64,000 nucleotides of DNA from Candidatus Bipolaricaulota bacterium (GCA_025060395.1 JANXCC010000001.1:42538-106537); one strand, 5' to 3'. Shown: positions 30,084 through 37,822, counted from the first letter of the stretch. A program made the numbers and translations. The notes: generated by a model from the letters alone, not told the origin.

Positions 30084-30162
30084 CCTCGATAAGTCATATT
30101 TGAAAAGGCCGGCCTGCATACGTATAATCAACTATTATACACTTGAAGCCCGAGGAGGTTTG

Positions 30163-30585
30163 ATGAGCACGAAACGCTTTGTGCTACTTTTGATTCCGGC
30201 CCTGGCTCTCGTCCTCGCAGGATGTCCGAAGATTATCTCAGGGGTCAATATTCGCATTGAAGAGATCGATGCGAGCTGTCGGGGAGCTCAGTTTGCGGCC
30301 CTGGCCTTTCAAAACGATGCAGCCATTGGCCGATTCGAGATGCGTGTGACGCATAAGCTCCAAGCGGAGTTCATCATCCCCGAAGGGGTCGCCCAGCGCA
30401 TCGACTTCAACCAGCCTGTCTACCTACGTATCTATATGGTTGGCGGGGATGCTTTTGAGTGCGTTATCGCTGGCAAGGTCTTAAGCTTCCGGGGTGTGCT
30501 CAAGCGCCATGGCACCGACCCGCGCACAGGCAATCCCGTCTACGTGCTGAAATTCTACGAAGACTTTAAGATCGAGCACCGGTAA
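30163..30585 (+). CDS. hypothetical lipoprotein
   Basis: SD GAGGAGG; lipobox LAGC after a hydrophobic leader. Confidence 0.7.
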   Translation: MSTKRFVLLLIPALALVLAGCPKIISGVNIRIEEIDASCRGAQFAALAFQNDAAIGRFEMRVTHKLQAEFIIPEGVAQRIDFNQPVYLRIYMVGGDAFECVIAGKVLSFRGVLKRHGTDPRTGNPVYVLKFYEDFKIEHR

Positions 30586-30631: not shown

Positions 30632-30661
30632 TTGACATCGTTCTCATTTTTACACTATAAT
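30632..30661 (+). promoter_or_regulatory. promoter of the pilus-like operon
   Basis: TTGACA-18nt-TATAAT. Confidence 0.75.
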
Positions 30662-30698
30662 ATGTCTGCTGTAAAAAGCTCGATAAAAGGAGGTAGTG

Positions 30699-31223
30699 AT
30701 GCATCCCGCAAGATCAATAGCAATTGTCTTGCTCGCTTTGGCAATAGGGTGGGCCAGCGGTCTTTCTCAGACCTCGCAAACCGTCACGGTTACCGTCAAT
30801 CAGTCGCTCTATTTGGACTGCTCTGCTGCCGTAGCGATCAATTATACCGTTACCCAAACCGACATCGAAGGGCCTCAGCCGTTCACTATCGGGACATGGG
30901 GTTGTAACGTCGATTCGCTGACAAACTTCGAACTCAGTGCCAATATGACCATGACCTCTACCGCTGACATTGTCAACGCGAGCGCGGACGACTTCTCCGC
31001 AACATGCACCTCAGCAAGCGGTGGTGGCAGCCCTAGCTGCGGCCCGGGGGGCACGTTCGGGCCGATCACCCTAGGTAGCGGTGGCAACACCGCCGGAACC
31101 CCAGGCGCTGACTTCAGTGGAAACGTCCGACTCAACGTAAGCGACTGGGATGTCCGAGCTATCCCGCCCAGCCGCAGCGTCAGCGGAGTGATTAACTACT
31201 CAGTCACGGACTCAACGCCATAG
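30699..31223 (+). CDS. secreted pilin-like subunit 1
   Basis: Signal peptide; QTVTVTVNQSLYLDC...NTAGTPGADF...GVINYSVTDSTP; 4 Cys. Confidence 0.65.
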   Translation: MHPARSIAIVLLALAIGWASGLSQTSQTVTVTVNQSLYLDCSAAVAINYTVTQTDIEGPQPFTIGTWGCNVDSLTNFELSANMTMTSTADIVNASADDFSATCTSASGGGSPSCGPGGTFGPITLGSGGNTAGTPGADFSGNVRLNVSDWDVRAIPPSRSVSGVINYSVTDSTP

Positions 31224-31258
31224 CAGACGACAAAAATTTGGCAAAGGAGGCCTGCATC

Positions 31259-31813
31259 ATGATCAGAAAGCTGCTCGTCGCGGCGCTTGGTGGAGTATTG
31301 GGGCTCTCCCTCTCAGCGGGGCTTGTCGCTCAACAAAACGTCACAATCGAGATTGGACAGTCGCTCTACTTGGACTGTGTGCCGCCGGATCAGCCTGGAG
31401 ATATTTATTACGTCGTCTTGCAGAGCGATATTGAAGCGCCACAGCCCATTGATATCGGCGACTGGGGCTGTAATGTCGATGCCGTAACGCAGTATAGACT
31501 TAACTCTCAGTTCACGTCGTTCTCTGCGCCCTTTGTCGTCAACGCTGATACCTCAGACTTCACCGCTGACTGCGATACAGCTGACGACTATGGGGTGTGC
31601 GCGCCCAACTCGTCTCTGACCCTTGGGGACGTCGACCCCAACACGCGGCGCGGCATAGGCTACAACACCGCTGGGACAAACGGGGCAGACTTTGCTGGGG
31701 ATGTCTTCGTGAACATGGGGGTTGGCCCTGGGGGCTGGGACGTCATGTCTTCGCAGCTCCCGGTCTACGTGACCGGAATCATTACCTACACAGTGACGGA
31801 TACTACTCCCTAG
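31259..31813 (+). CDS. secreted pilin-like subunit 2
   Basis: Paralog: QSLYLDC, DWGCNVD, NTAGTNGADF, GIITYTVTDTTP. Confidence 0.65.
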   Translation: MIRKLLVAALGGVLGLSLSAGLVAQQNVTIEIGQSLYLDCVPPDQPGDIYYVVLQSDIEAPQPIDIGDWGCNVDAVTQYRLNSQFTSFSAPFVVNADTSDFTADCDTADDYGVCAPNSSLTLGDVDPNTRRGIGYNTAGTNGADFAGDVFVNMGVGPGGWDVMSSQLPVYVTGIITYTVTDTTP

Positions 31814-31853
31814 CTCGCGGCCTTTCGCTATTATTTGGGGATGGGAGAGCTCT

Positions 31854-32381
31854 ATGAAGAAAAGGGCGAAGGCCGCTGGAGCTATGGCGCTAGTGATAGC
31901 CTTGCTCGGCTGGGGGAGCCTAGCCCAGACGAGCCAGAACGTGCGCGTGACGCTCGTCATCCCTCAGCCGCTCTTTATTGCCGCCGTGATCCCCTCTATC
32001 ACGGCAGAGATCACCTTGCGAGAGGTCGAAGGGCCACAGCCGTTCAAGATCGGCGACTGGCACGTCAATATCGACGCGCTCACGCCGTATAGACTCAATT
32101 CGTCGATCGTGACTATAGATACGAATATCTTCGACGCTGGCCCAGAGGACTTTCTCACCGACTGTGATTTTGCCGATGACTTCGGCGAGTGTACCGATAG
32201 GACTTCGCTGTCGGAGCCCGATCCCCAGAATCGTCGCGGCTCCGGACAGAACACCGCAGGCTTAGATGGTGCAGACTTTATGGGCGAGATCTTCTTAGAT
32301 ATTCGATCCTGGGATGTCAGCAAACTGCCAGGATTTTATATCGGCGTCATTCTCTTCACGACAACGGACATAACTCCGTAG
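31854..32381 (+). CDS. secreted pilin-like subunit 3
   Basis: Paralog: EGPQPF, DWHVNID, NTAGLDGADF, GVILFTTTDITP. Confidence 0.65.
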   Translation: MKKRAKAAGAMALVIALLGWGSLAQTSQNVRVTLVIPQPLFIAAVIPSITAEITLREVEGPQPFKIGDWHVNIDALTPYRLNSSIVTIDTNIFDAGPEDFLTDCDFADDFGECTDRTSLSEPDPQNRRGSGQNTAGLDGADFMGEIFLDIRSWDVSKLPGFYIGVILFTTTDITP

Positions 32382-32390
32382 GAGACAACG

Positions 32391-33323
32391 ATGAACCTCT
32401 TCCGAGCTATAGGGACTCTTGTCCTAGCTGTCACACTCGGGAGTCTATTAGTGCAAGCCGTCTCCCAAGGGCCAAACTATGCTAGCACGTATGCAGCCAC
32501 AGGGTGGTCTAACGCCAGCGCTGCTGTAGGAACTCCAGACAACACATGTGCCGAACGCACTGGAGCTGGCGGCGGCTCTCTCGATCTGACGGGCTTTGGT
32601 TTCACCATCCCCGATGCAGCCGTCATCCAGGGCATCACGGTGGAAGTCGACATGGCCGCGACCACGTCAAATGAAGGGGTCCGCGTGCGCTTGCTCAAGG
32701 GCGGGTCTCCCGTGGGCAATACCCAAGATATCTACGGCATCGCGGGGCAGACCGGCTGTAGCACAAGCGCTTTCCGTACTGTAGGCGGCCCTACAGATCT
32801 GTGGGGGACTTCATGGACTGCTGCTGATATCAATAGTGCGAACTTCGGGGTGCGCTTGTCCAAGCTCGGCTCTACAAACACTGCGTATGTTGACGCCGTG
32901 CGCATCACCATCGAATACCAAGACGTGATGACTGTCTCGGTGATCTCTGGTACAGCGCTCTCGGCCAACGTCACGAGCGCTTCCCAAGTTGAGAACGGCA
33001 TCGTGCCGTTCATCGGCCAGACAACGCTCCAAGTCGTCGCGACGCGCAACTGGCGCGTCTGCGCCAAGGTCAATGCTTATAGCTATCCCCCTGGCGCCGA
33101 TGATCCCACTGCTAATGCTCTGCAGATCAGAGATTATCTAGGCAATTGGCAACCTGGCGGCTCAAGCGTCGTCGTCGGCCAGGGGGCTCCTACGCCCGCC
33201 GGAGGCATCACCGTGACTGTCGATCAACGTGTACTCTTAGCAAGCTTTGGCGACGGCAAGATCGGTCCATATCAGTTTAATCTTGATTACTCGATCGACG
33301 GCCAAGGCGTGCCCTGTCCGTAA
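32391..33323 (+). CDS. secreted two-domain protein, putative tip adhesin
   Basis: Signal peptide; N-terminal beta domain (GFGFTIP...GGPTDLWGTSWT) plus C-terminal pilin-sized beta domain ending GPYQFNLDYS. Confidence 0.55.
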   Translation: MNLFRAIGTLVLAVTLGSLLVQAVSQGPNYASTYAATGWSNASAAVGTPDNTCAERTGAGGGSLDLTGFGFTIPDAAVIQGITVEVDMAATTSNEGVRVRLLKGGSPVGNTQDIYGIAGQTGCSTSAFRTVGGPTDLWGTSWTAADINSANFGVRLSKLGSTNTAYVDAVRITIEYQDVMTVSVISGTALSANVTSASQVENGIVPFIGQTTLQVVATRNWRVCAKVNAYSYPPGADDPTANALQIRDYLGNWQPGGSSVVVGQGAPTPAGGITVTVDQRVLLASFGDGKIGPYQFNLDYSIDGQGVPCP

Positions 33324-33333
33324 AGGAGCGTGA

Positions 33334-34149
33334 GTGTTCATGCGAAAGATTCTCTTGAGTTTCGTGCTCATAGTAGCAAGCGGGCTGCTGGCGCAAGGCC
33401 AGATTGGGATCTCTACGCTCAGTATAGATATAAATCTGCCCCCTGGCGGGAGCTTCACCGGCGGGTTTGAAGTCATCAACAACAGCAATCAGCCACGCGA
33501 GTTTACCGTCGAACTCAAAGACTATGATAGAAATATCGAGGGTGGCTTGGTTTTGCTGAACTCTGGGACGCATCCGCGCTCGCTCGCCAAGTTCTTATCG
33601 TTTACGCCGGCGCGGTTTACGCTGGCACCCAAGCAGAAACAAGTCATCACATTTAAGGTCGAGATTCCCACAACGGAGCGCGGGCCACACTGGGCAGCTC
33701 TGGCTATAACCAGCCCGGCACCATCGTCGGGCGCGCAGCCGCCGCCCCCAGCCGGACAGCAGCCGTCTATCCCAGTCACCATCGGGACAGCCGAACAGTT
33801 TATCGTCAAGATTCGGCACACCGATCCAACGAACGCTGTCAATCGCGGACGGATTCTCAGCGTCCAAGCACTGCTGCCAGAGCGCGATAAACCCTTGCGC
33901 ATCGTCGTCGAGTACGAGAACACCGGAACGACGTTCCAAGTCGTCAAGACTCAGCTGCGCATCGTGAACGCCAAGGGCGAGGTCGTGGTCCAGAAGAAGG
34001 GGGAGGATATGGCCGTGCTCCCTGGCGGTAAGCAACGGCTAGAAATCCCCGTGACGGAAAGACTGGCGCCGGGAACGTACTTAGCGCTCGTCATCATTGA
34101 CTTTGGCGGTGATGTCTTGGTTGCCGGGCAAGTGCGGTTCAAGCTCTAA
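33334..34149 (+). CDS. putative pilus assembly chaperone (PapD-like, two Ig domains)
   Basis: Signal peptide; VINNS...FTPARFTLAPKQKQ, YENTGTT, VLPGGKQ, PGTYLALVIIDFG. Confidence 0.6.
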   Translation: MFMRKILLSFVLIVASGLLAQGQIGISTLSIDINLPPGGSFTGGFEVINNSNQPREFTVELKDYDRNIEGGLVLLNSGTHPRSLAKFLSFTPARFTLAPKQKQVITFKVEIPTTERGPHWAALAITSPAPSSGAQPPPPAGQQPSIPVTIGTAEQFIVKIRHTDPTNAVNRGRILSVQALLPERDKPLRIVVEYENTGTTFQVVKTQLRIVNAKGEVVVQKKGEDMAVLPGGKQRLEIPVTERLAPGTYLALVIIDFGGDVLVAGQVRFKL

Positions 34150-34169
34150 AAGCAGCGAGGGAAGGTAAT

Positions 34170-37100
34170 ATGATACGCGGAGCGTGTACGGGGCTTACAC
34201 TTGCGGTTCTGAGTGTTTTGATAGCTCTTGCTCAAGGGCAACCCCTGGAGCTGATCGCGCCGCCGACACGCTCGGCTCTACCTGGAGATATCATCACTCT
34301 CACCTTTGTGGCGATCAACCGCGGGACGACCTCAGATACATATCTATTCTCGGTTGAAGCCCCGCGAGGTTTCCAGATCCTTGGGGCTTTGCCTCCCATC
34401 ACGATCGCCCCTGGCACCCAGGAGCCGGTCTTCGTCACGCTGCTTATTGCCCAAGAGACGCCCGCGGGAACGTACACAATTGGGCTCGAAGCTGTTTCTC
34501 AAAGCGATCCGGCAATCCGAGCACGTGCTCAGACAGCGATCACGGTTGAGAAGACCACAGGGGTCATCGTGCGCGCTCCCGCTTCTCAAGAAGTCGATCC
34601 CGGCGCCGAAGTGATTCTGACGTTCAGCGTGACCAATCGGGGCAACGTCATAGACGCTTTTCGCCTGGACGCGTTCACGCCGCGAGGCTTTCTCACCGTT
34701 GTTGAGCCAAGACTTGTCGAGTTGCTCCCCGGTGAGACCCGCTCGGTTCTCGTTACTGTCAGGATCCCTCAAGATGCCTCGCCGGGATTTGAGCCGGTCA
34801 CACTCACAGCGATTTCATTGCGCCATGAAGGAATTCAAGCTTATGGAGCCGCGACGCTCATCATTCTGCCTCCAGAGGCTGCTAAGGTCCCTACAGCACT
34901 CTATTTGCTTGCCCCAGCAGAGTTCTCTGTAGGAGCGAACGCTTCCTTGAGCAGCGGTGCCCTGAGCTCTCTCATCTCGTTTCTCACCTATACGACGCTG
35001 CCAGAAGAGCAACGCTTCAGCCTAAAGATCACGGTCTCGGATATCGTGCGATCCCAGATCCCTTCGGGGTTACCTATCAGTGTGAAGGAGTTTCTCTTTA
35101 CATCCCAACGCGAGACGTTCTTTGCCCAGCTGGGCGATCTCCCGCAATCGCCCCTCATCTATAATCTGTTACCGCGTCGTGGCGTCGAGGTGGGGTTTAC
35201 AGATCTCTTCTCGCTCGTGGCGACGTTTGAAGATCACGATGGGGACTTCTTCCAAGAACAACGTGCCATGGCTTTGAACTTCAATGGGGCGAGCGTCCGA
35301 GCGTCGCTAGCGCGGCTGAGCGTCTCCGGGGCTACCCCATATGTGCTGACAGCAGCCAACTTCCGGAGCGGCGTGCTCTCCGTCGAGGGAGCTGTCGCCG
35401 AAGTGAGCGCAGGCCTACGGCGCATGGTCTTCCTGCGCGCGGCGCCGTCGTTCTTTGGGGTAACGCTTGGGGGAGAGTACCTGCGCGTTGAGCCGGATTT
35501 CCCAAGTCTCATCAGCGTTCCTGCGGTCATAGCTGACACTCAAATCTGGACGCTCTTTGGCAACGGGAGCATCGGGGCACTAGGGGTGAACGTGCTCGTC
35601 TCGGGCAAGAGAACTGATCTCTTCAACGATCCCGCTGTGCAAGAGATCACTGCCATAACATCCCAGGGACGCCTGGTCGTACGAAGCTTTCTGCCAGGGT
35701 GGCCTAGTGTGTTCTTCGATATCAAATTCATCTCGCGACGCAGCAACGATCCGCCGTTCCCTTCCATCAGCACTGACGAAGATATCAAATCTCTCACAAT
35801 CGCCGACATTGCCAGCCCAGTTAGCTATATTTTGACATTCCAAAGCAATCTCTTTCGGGATAATCTCGCCCCCGCCAATAACACCGATACGTTTGAACTC
35901 ATCAGTGTGCTCATCACTCGTCCGTTGTTGGGCGTTGAAGGGCTCTCCCTCAACTTAAGCGTGAAGAGCACCTTCCAAGTCGCCCCCACTACGAACACGA
36001 TACTTGATCACCAAGTAGCGTTCATCGGGCGGATAGCGTTCACGACCGCGCGCGTCTCCGCGTTCTTGTTATTAGGGGTCAATAGCAATCTACTCTACCC
36101 GTTCTTGTCGAGTTACTTTGGCTCGTTCAGCGCGACGCTCTTTGGGCCGGTGAGCACCTCATTCGGCTTTGCATTCACGGAGCCGTCCTCGTTGAGCTTT
36201 AATATTGAGATACGCACGAAGTTTGCAATGCCCTTTGAGTCTGTGATAATTAAAGGTCGCGTCGAGGGCTATCTGTATATAGACATCAATAATAACGGCC
36301 AACACGACCCCGGCGAGCCCGGCGTCACAGACGCCCTCTTGCGCTTAGACAATCAGTTGGCCCGCACTGACGCCCAAGGATACTTCCGGTTCCCGCCTGT
36401 TGATCCTGGTTCTTATAAAGTCGAGATCGCACGGGCCCCCTTGGGATTAGTAACTACTGTTCCCACTCCGATCCCAGTCACTGTAGCTATCGGACAGATC
36501 GTTACCCTGGAGATCCCTATGCGCTCGGTGGGTATTATCCGCGGCCGAGTCTTCGACGACAAGAACCGCAACGGCAAGCCCGATCCCGACGAGCGCGGCT
36601 TAGCCAACGTACGGGTCTTTGCCATCGGCACGACAAGCGCTGAGGTTCGCTCCAGCGCCGATGGCCAATATCTCCTCCAAGTCTCGCCGGGAGATTACAC
36701 GGTGACAGTCGATCGCACAACACTGCCTAAGCGCTATGAGCTCACGACGCCGCCCAGCGTAACTGTCACGGTACAGACGGGCCAGACCGTCACTGTAGAC
36801 TTTGGAGCCTATGAAGTCCCCCGCCCAGTGCTCTTCGCACCGATAGCCGACTTCACGTTCACGCCCGCGCAACCAAGAGTCGGCGAGCGCGTTATCTTTG
36901 ACGCTTCAGCGTCGACGGACAGCGACGGCCAGATCGTCCGATACGAGTGGGACTTCACCGGCGATGGCACGGTCGACGCCATGGGTAAGATCGTCGAGTG
37001 GGTCTTCACAAGCGCCGGAGATTTTCCTGTCAAGCTCACCGTCACGGACAACGACACGCTGCAGAACTCTATCACTAAGATCGTACCCGTGCGGCCATGA
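34170..37100 (+). CDS. large exported protein: NEW3-like Ig x2, beta-rich core, SdrD-B-like x2, PKD; putative usher/assembly platform
   Basis: NRGTTSDTY and TNRGNVIDAF Ig repeats; long amphipathic beta-strand region; YIDINNNGQHDPGEPG and FDDKNRNGKPDPDERG; PKD YEWDFTGDG. Confidence 0.6.
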   Translation: MIRGACTGLTLAVLSVLIALAQGQPLELIAPPTRSALPGDIITLTFVAINRGTTSDTYLFSVEAPRGFQILGALPPITIAPGTQEPVFVTLLIAQETPAGTYTIGLEAVSQSDPAIRARAQTAITVEKTTGVIVRAPASQEVDPGAEVILTFSVTNRGNVIDAFRLDAFTPRGFLTVVEPRLVELLPGETRSVLVTVRIPQDASPGFEPVTLTAISLRHEGIQAYGAATLIILPPEAAKVPTALYLLAPAEFSVGANASLSSGALSSLISFLTYTTLPEEQRFSLKITVSDIVRSQIPSGLPISVKEFLFTSQRETFFAQLGDLPQSPLIYNLLPRRGVEVGFTDLFSLVATFEDHDGDFFQEQRAMALNFNGASVRASLARLSVSGATPYVLTAANFRSGVLSVEGAVAEVSAGLRRMVFLRAAPSFFGVTLGGEYLRVEPDFPSLISVPAVIADTQIWTLFGNGSIGALGVNVLVSGKRTDLFNDPAVQEITAITSQGRLVVRSFLPGWPSVFFDIKFISRRSNDPPFPSISTDEDIKSLTIADIASPVSYILTFQSNLFRDNLAPANNTDTFELISVLITRPLLGVEGLSLNLSVKSTFQVAPTTNTILDHQVAFIGRIAFTTARVSAFLLLGVNSNLLYPFLSSYFGSFSATLFGPVSTSFGFAFTEPSSLSFNIEIRTKFAMPFESVIIKGRVEGYLYIDINNNGQHDPGEPGVTDALLRLDNQLARTDAQGYFRFPPVDPGSYKVEIARAPLGLVTTVPTPIPVTVAIGQIVTLEIPMRSVGIIRGRVFDDKNRNGKPDPDERGLANVRVFAIGTTSAEVRSSADGQYLLQVSPGDYTVTVDRTTLPKRYELTTPPSVTVTVQTGQTVTVDFGAYEVPRPVLFAPIADFTFTPAQPRVGERVIFDASASTDSDGQIVRYEWDFTGDGTVDAMGKIVEWVFTSAGDFPVKLTVTDNDTLQNSITKIVPVRP

Positions 37101-37822
37101 GGAAGGGCGTGCTCGTCGCACTTGGCGTGCTCGTTGGTGTCCTTGGAGCTTGGTGGATCTGGCAAAGATCTTCCTTCCAACACGAAGAGAGTTCAGGCCC
37201 CCTGAGGGTCTTCCCGACAAAGATCAGAGTAGATGGTAACCCCGATGATTTTGTGACTCTTGTCTTTATGCTACACAATCTCAGCGATCAAGAGCACTCT
37301 TATGAGCTACGCGCGGAAGTGCCTCCAGGATGGCAACTGCTTGAGGCACTCCGGGCTATCGCCGTTAGTCCTCAAGCCCAACACGAGGTCTTTTTCACCG
37401 TGCAGATCCCGCCGGGGACACCGCCCGGTCGCTATACCCTTGGCCTCTATGCTGCTAGCGGGGTGGACTTCGCTGTCGGAAGGGCGCAGGTTATCGTGAG
37501 GGCCCGCGAACGACTCAAGCTCTCACTTGCTTCGGCAGATTTACTCGTCCGTCCTAGCGAAGAGAAATCGATCACCTTGACAGTGACCAACCGAGGGAAT
37601 ATTCCAGCTCGAGCGACAGTAGCGGTGGCGACAGCCCCTCTCGGGTGGCAGTTTCAGCTGCAAGAGAGTGCTCTGACCCTCGCTCCACGTGAGAGCAAGA
37701 CCGTAGAGCTGAGGGTCAAACCCTTGCCCGGAGTAGAGCTAGCGCCAGGACGATTCACCGTGCAGGCGATCTCTCCCTCAGCACGCGATGAGCTCTCAGT
37801 GACCGTTGTCCTTGTGCCGTAG
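37097..37822 (+). CDS. membrane-anchored protein with two NEW3-like Ig domains
   Basis: N-terminal TM helix; PPGW, VTNRGN, PLGW; start overlaps the upstream stop (ATGA). Confidence 0.65.
   Translation: MRKGVLVALGVLVGVLGAWWIWQRSSFQHEESSGPLRVFPTKIRVDGNPDDFVTLVFMLHNLSDQEHSYELRAEVPPGWQLLEALRAIAVSPQAQHEVFFTVQIPPGTPPGRYTLGLYAASGVDFAVGRAQVIVRARERLKLSLASADLLVRPSEEKSITLTVTNRGNIPARATVAVATAPLGWQFQLQESALTLAPRESKTVELRVKPLPGVELAPGRFTVQAISPSARDELSVTVVLVP

Follow-up and report, generated by a model that had tools for sequence, protein, structure and literature searches.

The locus examined here is a run of seven genes, a candidate pilus operon, in a 64,000-nucleotide stretch of DNA from Candidatus Bipolaricaulota bacterium (GCA_025060395.1 JANXCC010000001.1:42538-106537). 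This whole stretch is referred to as the window, and positions are counted from its first letter. The Bipolaricaulota (Acetothermia, OP1) are widespread and deep-branching, and all members were uncultivated until recently. An initial annotation, made from the sequence alone, had read positions 30632-37822 as seven open reading frames (ORFs) encoding a divergent donor-strand-exchange fibre. All seven ORFs are present where they had been placed: the + strand carries genes A-G between acs and ftsH, with intergenic gaps of -4 to 40 nucleotides (nt). The operon contains the following features:

30632-30661, + strand: sigma-70-type promoter, TTGACA-18 nt-TATAAT (12/12 consensus positions)
30696-31223, + strand: pilin A, 175 amino acids (aa), with a signal peptide; member of the pilin profile
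31238-31813, + strand: pilin B, 191 aa counted from TTG
31854-32381, + strand: pilin C, 175 aa; the copy used for modelling
32391-33323, + strand: D, candidate tip subunit, 310 aa, with a signal peptide
33334-34149, + strand: E, candidate two-domain periplasmic chaperone, 271 aa
34170-37100, + strand: F, candidate outer-membrane platform/usher, 976 aa, with a signal peptide
37097-37822, + strand: G, N-terminal membrane anchor and two NEW3-type immunoglobulin-like (Ig) domains, 241 aa

The strong promoter that had been claimed is borne out by the full consensus match; nine promoter-like sites were observed in the region, versus 3.5 +/- 2.2 in shuffles. With regard to translation starts, ATG 30699 of pilin A suits the GGAGG at 30689-30693 better than GTG 30696 does, and the true start of pilin B may be the internal Met 8. 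An N-terminal hydrophobic segment is present in all seven proteins. That of G has no obvious cleavage site and, from its sequence, looks like an uncleaved anchor.

As the initial annotation had observed, sortase, LPxTG and prepilin signals are lacking: the LPxTG motif is absent from the eight proteins checked, and no prepilin motif occurs in any of the seven operon proteins. The source genome, which named homologues assign to Bipolaricaulota and which is incomplete (87.9% complete; 1.70 Mb in 86 contigs), yielded no sortase and no match to Usher, PapD_N or WxL. The genome does contain an Omp85/BamA gene, and hence the source bacterium is a diderm. No enzyme domains were detected among the operon proteins in Pfam or NCBIfam. 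In 7 of 26 related loci, gathered through one E motif, the order of all seven genes is retained, which excludes chance clustering.

Pilin-like subunits A-D

A, B and C are indeed three tandem, paralogous, secreted proteins. B and C are 45% and 37% identical to A, B is 44% identical to C (in a search of their own genome), and 48 of 193 alignment columns are invariant. The mature proteins are each ~150 aa long. The alternating N-terminal strands attributed to them (VTVTV, VTIEI and VRVTLVI) are found in the sequences. Among the motifs said to be shared, WxxNxD, NTAGxxGADF and the terminal GxIx[YF]xxTDxTP were recovered, while EGPQP reads EAPQP in B. In pilin A the N-terminal strand is TVTVTV and the C-terminal strand is GVINYSVTDSTP; in pilin C the N-terminal donor-strand candidate comprises residues 29-36, and the C-terminal strand residues 160-172. 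This amphipathic N-terminal strand is conserved across the pilin family.

The proposal of an unrecognised pilin family holds: neither the pilins nor D belong to a family in Pfam or NCBIfam. A word-based search for the pilins gave 10 clusters, a full HMMER pass of the pilin profile over 1.84 billion representatives gave 11 at E <= 1e-3, and the profile has no match among PDB sequences. The WxL family (PF13731) has no match in A, B, C, D or the genome, and an hhalign comparison of the pilins with 12 WxL proteins aligned the C-terminal strand only.

Kinship with known pilins emerges at the level of the fold. Pilin C was modelled with AlphaFold2 (AF2) from a 17-row alignment, giving a predicted local distance difference test score (pLDDT) of 85.4 and a predicted template modelling (pTM) score of 0.75. 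The Foldseek comparison advised in the initial annotation placed chaperone-usher-type pilins at the top, with FimA monomers first (E 4.7e-4, probability 1.00, template modelling (TM) score 0.36-0.44), followed by FimF, PapE, PapA, CS20, archaeal bundling pili and TasA. The best VIA-align match was self-complemented FimA (6erj_B; 132 residues aligned over model residues 25-173, root-mean-square deviation (rmsd) 3.5), with a Z of 8.3 in a tool that itself remarks that unrelated models commonly reach Z 7-8. FimA aligns from residue 25 of the model, and donor-strand-complemented pilins align only from residues 38-41 onward. This suggests that the N-terminal strand of the pilin C model fills its own groove, as it does in monomeric FimA.

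Distantly related loci with an E homologue carry four to seven tandem small secreted paralogues just upstream of E. These distant pilins have (i) an alternating N-terminal strand, (ii) GGN[TS]EGG where the window has NTAG, and (iii) a C-terminal strand of the form ...VTE/VTD. The pilin hidden Markov model matches them weakly, and always at that same position upstream of E. By hhalign, the distant and window pilins align over 169 columns (probability 96.7%, E 3.5e-10). None of 14 distant paralogues scanned has a Pfam family.

The fourth gene had been described as encoding a two-domain secreted protein, and D does have two domains: an N-terminal domain of ~150 aa with no known family in Pfam and, at the C-terminal end (about residues 171-310), a domain of the pilin family. 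The C-terminal family aligns with the distant pilins (hhalign probability 99.1%, E 4.4e-19) and with the window pilin family (87.6%, E 3.5e-6). Whole D has no match to the pilin profile; the kinship is visible only in the alignment of C-terminal-domain families. Since the C-terminal domain falls in the pilin superfamily and stands behind an extra N-terminal domain, D has, by its sequence, the architecture of a FimH-/PapG-type tip subunit, and would be expected to sit at the tip of a fibre. Atlas scores for D were low (0.78; rank 18, at 0.76, was a WxL-containing cluster), and no evidence was drawn from them.

A separate observation concerns residues C104 and C113 of pilin C, which vary little or not at all in the pilin family alignment. 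This suggests that a loop of the protein, which would be periplasmic or extracellular and belongs to an anaerobic thermophile, carries a conserved disulfide.

Candidate chaperone E, candidate platform protein F and its paralogue G

The chaperone proposed in the initial annotation was a two-domain protein of a chaperone-usher-like system. E does have chaperone homology; it is of the WxLIP type, not PapD-like. A single-sequence comparison of E with Pfam WxLIP_PGBD (PF06030) falls below the cut-off (E 0.018; 15.5 bits vs 27.3), and E has no PF11797 match in Pfam. Nine of the 26 E family members reach E <= 0.1 against PF06030, and a profile of the E family finds EfmWxLIP1 in the PDB (E 1.1e-3). 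The relationship becomes clear in family-to-family alignments, for which the comparison sets were 15 DUF916 proteins and 12 WxL proteins encoded next to them, all from Bacilli-like genomes, and 11 PapD-like chaperones of E. coli K-12. The E family aligns with the WxLIP set over 216 columns covering both domains (hhalign probability 98.7%, E 1.8e-16), and this likeness persists when mature regions only are compared (98.2%, E 3e-14). Against the PapD-like set, the probability is 84.6% with signal peptides and 12.2% with mature regions only; the corresponding values for WxLIP versus PapD-like proteins are 29.8% and 0.7%. PapD_N (PF00345) has no match to E at E <= 1 and none in the genome, and two of the 26 family members match it at E <= 0.1 (best 0.035). 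On these sequence comparisons, E is a remote homologue of WxLIP (DUF916/DUF3324), and not a member of the PapD family.

E has no C-terminal membrane helix; the chain ends in a beta-hairpin (DFGGDVLVAGQVRFKL). Apart from the signal peptide, its one hydrophobic window is residues 249-267, which contains D, G, G and D. The candidate donor strand, residues 146-157, is followed by a conserved Arg161; strand and Arg are conserved in 23 of the 26 family members, and the Arg aligns with an Arg of WxLIP (hhalign). It may have a role in binding the invariant C-terminus of the pilin.

Modelling of pilin-chaperone pairs, the second check advised, predicts an interface between E and pilin C. Mature E and mature pilin C gave an interaction prediction score from aligned errors (ipSAE) of 0.88 in all three runs, the best control reaching 0.02. 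That mark is attained by 116 of 157 solved complexes and by 2 of 215 mismatched pairs, counts that are only roughly valid with our own alignments. At least 89% of contacts agreed across the runs, with a partner pLDDT of 83 or higher. The lowest-error residue pairs run from E148:C162 to E157:C170 with a positive slope, i.e., the strands pair in parallel, and pilin C residues 25-36 lie outside the predicted E interface. In the model, the placement of an E strand in parallel with the pilin's C-terminal strand is the geometry of donor-strand complementation. By this prediction, the protein that had been listed simply as having two Ig domains would complement the groove of the pilin, one of its strands pairing there in parallel.

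Some observations on the wider E family are added here. The family is present in two to seven copies in many genomes of the phylum. Some matches span only profile positions 85-274 inside frames of 380-500 aa; these partial matches point to variant chaperone architectures, as far as sequence can tell.

F, claimed as a 976-aa beta-rich protein, is modelled with a large barrel-like middle flanked by Ig-like domains. Pfam assigns two NEW3-type Ig domains (25-232) at the N-terminal end, followed by an unassigned middle region of about 240-690 (the barrel-like part, ~450 aa, being about 244-690) and then by a pair of SdrD_B/CarboxypepD_reg domains and one PKD domain. Atlas language-model neighbours of this middle are outer-membrane barrel clusters (0.90-0.92), and the full-length AF2 model (pLDDT 63.7) has ~25 long strands in it. 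Foldseek places FimD (E 5.2e-12) and PapC (2.6e-9) among multi-Ig proteins, as the only barrel proteins in the top 50 rows. In VIA-align, porins match residues 244-685 (Z 13.4, rmsd 10.5), and FimD matches the longer segment 250-882 (Z 11.5, rmsd 23.7). The middle of F is likely to be a beta-barrel, according to these models; on models and analogy together, we judge the chances that F is an usher to be about even. Seven distant F-like proteins have the same architecture.

G, foreseen as a membrane-anchored Ig protein, has the uncleaved-looking anchor and two NEW3-type Ig domains. It is 35% identical to F residues 38-198 over 162 aa (E 2e-21); the G family aligns with the F N-terminus at an hhalign probability of 99.7%, and G matches Pfam NPCBM_assoc (3.7e-14). 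From its sequence, G is a membrane-anchored paralogue of the N-terminal module of F. G was also considered as a chaperone homologue, and rejected: E-G similarity is weak by BLASTP and hhalign, and the G family aligns with WxLIP (85.7%) over one Ig domain only. We read this likeness as a shared Ig type rather than as chaperone homology.

A proposed donor-strand pilus and its alternatives

We consider it probable that the product of the operon is a donor-strand-exchange pilus, assembled by a diderm bacterium with the help of a chaperone. The in silico support covers the pilin fold, the homology between E and WxLIP, and the geometry of the E-pilin interface; pilin polymerisation, the placement of D at the tip and the pore role of F are what we infer. 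To this extent the divergent fibre of the initial annotation is supported in silico, by pilin fold, groove complementation by E, D and the F barrel.

In the proposed mechanism, pilins A, B and C and subunit D would be exported by Sec, and soluble E would capture each subunit in the periplasm. Strand 146-157 of E, lying in parallel with the subunit's C-terminal strand, would complete the Ig fold (donor-strand complementation), leaving the N-terminal amphipathic strand of the subunit free while E is bound. The N-terminal strand of the next subunit would then displace the E strand, joining subunits head to tail (donor-strand exchange). D, with its pilin domain behind an extra N-terminal domain, would be placed at the tip. 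F would act as assembly platform and exit pore, with periplasmic Ig-like modules either side of an outer-membrane barrel, and G—an inner-membrane-tethered copy of the N-terminal module of F—may play an accessory role. The predicted product is a thin surface fibre of strand-swapping subunits.

Several points weigh against this interpretation. The fold match of the pilins is middling (Z 8.3, TM 0.36-0.44, where Z 7-8 is common among unrelated models), and their hhalign probabilities of 2.4% against the WxL profile and 2.2% against Fim pilins are not significant. The predictor may recall solved chaperone-subunit complexes, which would inflate the interface score, and the calibration of that score is, as stated, rough. 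In the F model, the barrel region has a pLDDT of only 30-65, the usher matches have TM scores of 0.15-0.20 and rmsd values of >23 A, and porins score as well as FimD. F has no evident plug domain and no match to Usher (PF00577), and its hhalign probability against FimD is 1%. Finally, the F barrel was found, with a single-protein query, in 14 of 184 phylum genomes, all in the family-level group of the window.

The weaknesses concerning F lead to a first alternative, which we regard as unlikely: a donor-strand fibre built with E as chaperone, in which F is an outer-membrane (toga) anchor or adhesin rather than a secretion pore, and the fibre stays in the periplasmic/toga space or exits by another route. 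The low-confidence barrel model, the equal match of porins and ushers, and the lack of a plug domain or Usher signature all fit such an arrangement, and Pam and Elr pili are described as needing no pore (bioRxiv 10.64898/2026.03.03.709456; 10.64898/2026.10.17.759780). Speaking for a pore are the F-like ORF in 23 of 26 E loci across deep divergence, a domain order (Ig-like module, barrel, Ig-like modules) that parallels that of ushers, and the absence of any barrel protein other than FimD and PapC from the top 50 Foldseek rows. Still less probable, in our estimation, is a static envelope complex without any fibre, with E forming stable heterodimers with A, B, C and D that decorate the envelope. 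The assembly that was modelled is the E-pilin heterodimer alone, and an older platform model exists for WxL-WxLIP clusters (bioRxiv 10.64898/2026.10.17.759780). A static complex does not sit well with a pilin N-terminal strand that is conserved and lies outside the E interface, with three or more tandem pilin paralogues accompanied by a tip-like two-domain subunit, or with the reported polymerisation of the homologous WxL system (bioRxiv 10.64898/2026.10.17.759780).

The remaining two alternatives change the nature of the system. Surface proteins that process glycans often contain NEW3, PKD, SdrD_B and CarboxypepD_reg domains, and the operon might in principle encode an apparatus for binding surface polysaccharide or capturing nutrients, the small proteins being carbohydrate-binding modules and F a porin-adhesin fusion. 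We hold this to be very improbable: the operon lacks enzyme domains, and neither the pilin-fold matches nor the parallel complementation by an E strand would be expected. That the operon is a classical (PapD plus Usher family) chaperone-usher system, merely divergent, has next to no probability. Its pilin fold is nearest FimA, two of 26 E members match PapD_N (at 0.035), and the E profile scores 84.6% against PapD-like chaperones when signal peptides are included; this value drops to 12.2% once they are removed, no PapD_N or Usher match was found in the proteins or the genome, and E is clearly a WxLIP homologue.

A chaperone-assisted donor-strand pilus invites comparison with known systems, the closest of which through the chaperone is the Elr/WxL pilus of Enterococcus faecalis and the WxL-WxLIP (Csc) clusters of Bacillota, whose chaperone is homologous to E over both domains (PDB 9i1y, 9i25 EfmWxLIP1). 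According to the available text of the Elr preprint (bioRxiv 10.64898/2026.10.17.759780), the pili built by Elr/WxL clusters form by donor-strand exchange, with a DUF916/DUF3324 chaperone held in the membrane and with anchoring by sortase, WxLIP/ElrE is a donor-strand-complementing pilus chaperone, and 96.7% of WxL chaperones have a membrane helix at the C-terminus. ElrE-ElrD, as presented there, and the predicted E-pilin C complex share a chaperone strand parallel to the pilin C-terminal strand with the pilin N-terminal strand left free. Both systems also have tandem small pilins and a larger subunit bearing a pilin module. The C-terminal TDxTP of the pilins resembles the WxL C-terminus (e.g., LTWELTDAP), a likeness that is not significant (probability 2.4%). 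The systems differ in that E is unanchored and below the PF06030 cut-off, the pilins are not WxL domains, and the Bipolaricaulota operon has neither an LPxTG subunit nor a sortase; moreover, it has a diderm host and includes a predicted outer-membrane barrel protein. By sequence, it is a member of the WxL system only in part, via the chaperone alone.

The resemblance to classical chaperone-usher systems lies in Ig-like pilins nearest FimA, a soluble two-domain chaperone, predicted parallel complementation, a tip-like subunit, and an F protein of the same size class (~900-1000 aa) with a modelled barrel between beta-sandwich modules. In contrast, none of the components can be assigned by sequence to the PapD_N, Usher or fimbrial families, and F lacks a recognised plug. 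The operon works like a chaperone-usher system, as modelled, while standing outside that family by every sequence criterion. The Pam pilus of the candidate phyla radiation, in the published description, likewise combines donor-strand-exchange pilins outside Proteobacteria/Bacillota, FimC/PapD-like two-domain chaperones and a tip pilin in one operon (bioRxiv 10.64898/2026.03.03.709456). It differs in that its chaperones and RbmA-like terminator are membrane-anchored, its host is monoderm, no trans-envelope machinery is proposed in the available text, and its pilins have an extra nine-strand N-terminal sandwich, a comparison made by description only (bioRxiv 10.64898/2026.03.03.709456). The TLP-1a/b pond fibrils found by CryoSeek are donor-strand-exchange fibres of secreted Ig-like protomers with assembly genes given as unknown, and the published TLP-1 model takes as its basis an 'F. 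bacterium' entry in UniProt (as stated in PMC11494351). Their folds (PDB 9ikj, 9ikk) match pilin C with Z 7.1 and 6.9 over 128-129 aligned residues, below the Z 8.3 of FimA; they differ in having larger protomers and strand exchange between n and n+4 (PMC11494351). A sequence link between the pilins and TLP-1 was sought and not obtained (two pilin profiles, A4 and A6, and two single pilins all gave no match at E <= 10), which leaves the likeness at fold level only.

In the literature on WxL/WxLIP and on pili in Bipolaricaulota/Acetothermia, we found no description of such an operon. The screen in the Elr preprint, made at Pfam gathering thresholds, reports operons in Bacillota only, in the text available (bioRxiv 10.64898/2026.10.17.759780); the Bipolaricaulota operon, with E below those thresholds, would escape it. 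In the accessible part of its description, the first closed Bipolaricaulota genome is reported to have no genes for fimbriae, pili or surface adhesins (Hao et al. 2018, PMC6092417), and the available account of the first cultured strain describes pili at the toga ends and names no genes for them (bioRxiv 10.1101/2025.11.21.689855). The operon thus provides a concrete gene candidate for Bipolaricaulota pili. What appears to be new is a chaperone-assisted donor-strand pilus with a WxLIP-type chaperone, an unrecognised pilin family and a candidate new usher; F would offer a possible new usher family. A WxLIP-type chaperone, reported as confined to Bacillota, is here placed in a double-membraned bacterium, in soluble form and adjoining a predicted outer-membrane barrel protein. 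The relation of Gram-positive WxL pili to Gram-negative chaperone-usher pili becomes directly testable.

A more far-reaching reading joins these elements. The operon would represent a diderm, pore-equipped branch of a WxLIP-chaperone pilus superfamily; donor-strand exchange would be one old principle spanning the monoderm/diderm divide, not separate inventions in PapD/usher and Bacillota WxL systems; F would found a usher family non-homologous to the known one; and the fibres would be the toga-end pili of the cultured strain. We offer this combination tentatively, its chances being somewhat under even.

Distribution and neighbouring features

Members of the E family were found in 148 of 184 phylum genomes, 66 of 71 high-quality genomes and 48 of 54 genera; genomes labelled Fraserbacteria or Thermotogota fall within Bipolaricaulota. 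Among the 26 loci, all seven genes are found in order in seven. An F-like ORF is present in 23 of the 26 (downstream on the same strand in 20), and BLASTP finds none in the other three. Since the barrel query matched only 14 of the 184 genomes, co-occurrence of E and F is not established across the phylum.

Three loci of E-F type, L017, L023 and L025, are in genomes labelled Deltaproteobacteria, Cloacimonadota and Bacillota. They appear to lie outside Bipolaricaulota, and are not among the 184 phylum genomes. Mis-binning is possible for two of the three, whose contigs are short. At L023, the proteins are rich in Lys, Ile and Asn, a composition expected of a low-GC host; this speaks against simple mis-binning of that locus. 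A further observation outside the phylum comes from Thermotoga maritima, a toga-bearing diderm used as a control genome: it has an above-cut-off match to Pfam WxLIP_PGBD (DUF916), and so DUF916 proteins outside Bacillota exist.

Variant gene arrangements were seen at three loci. In L009 (5205-5936 and 8800-11710) and L014 (8843-11725), homologues of pilin A and/or F are split into two overlapping or adjacent ORFs, reflecting either frameshifts or assembly errors. In L013 (1866-8756), the F- and G-like genes are found upstream of the pilin-D-E block and in the opposite orientation to it; here the gene set is kept and the operon rearranged.

One neighbouring feature lies directly upstream of the operon:

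30163-30585, + strand: lipoprotein gene, lipobox LAGC

This gene has its own promoter-like site (30100-30128, 11/12 consensus positions), and its product has no Pfam or NCBIfam family. It precedes gene A in six of the seven fully syntenic loci and, judging by this synteny, the lipoprotein may be an eighth component of the operon.

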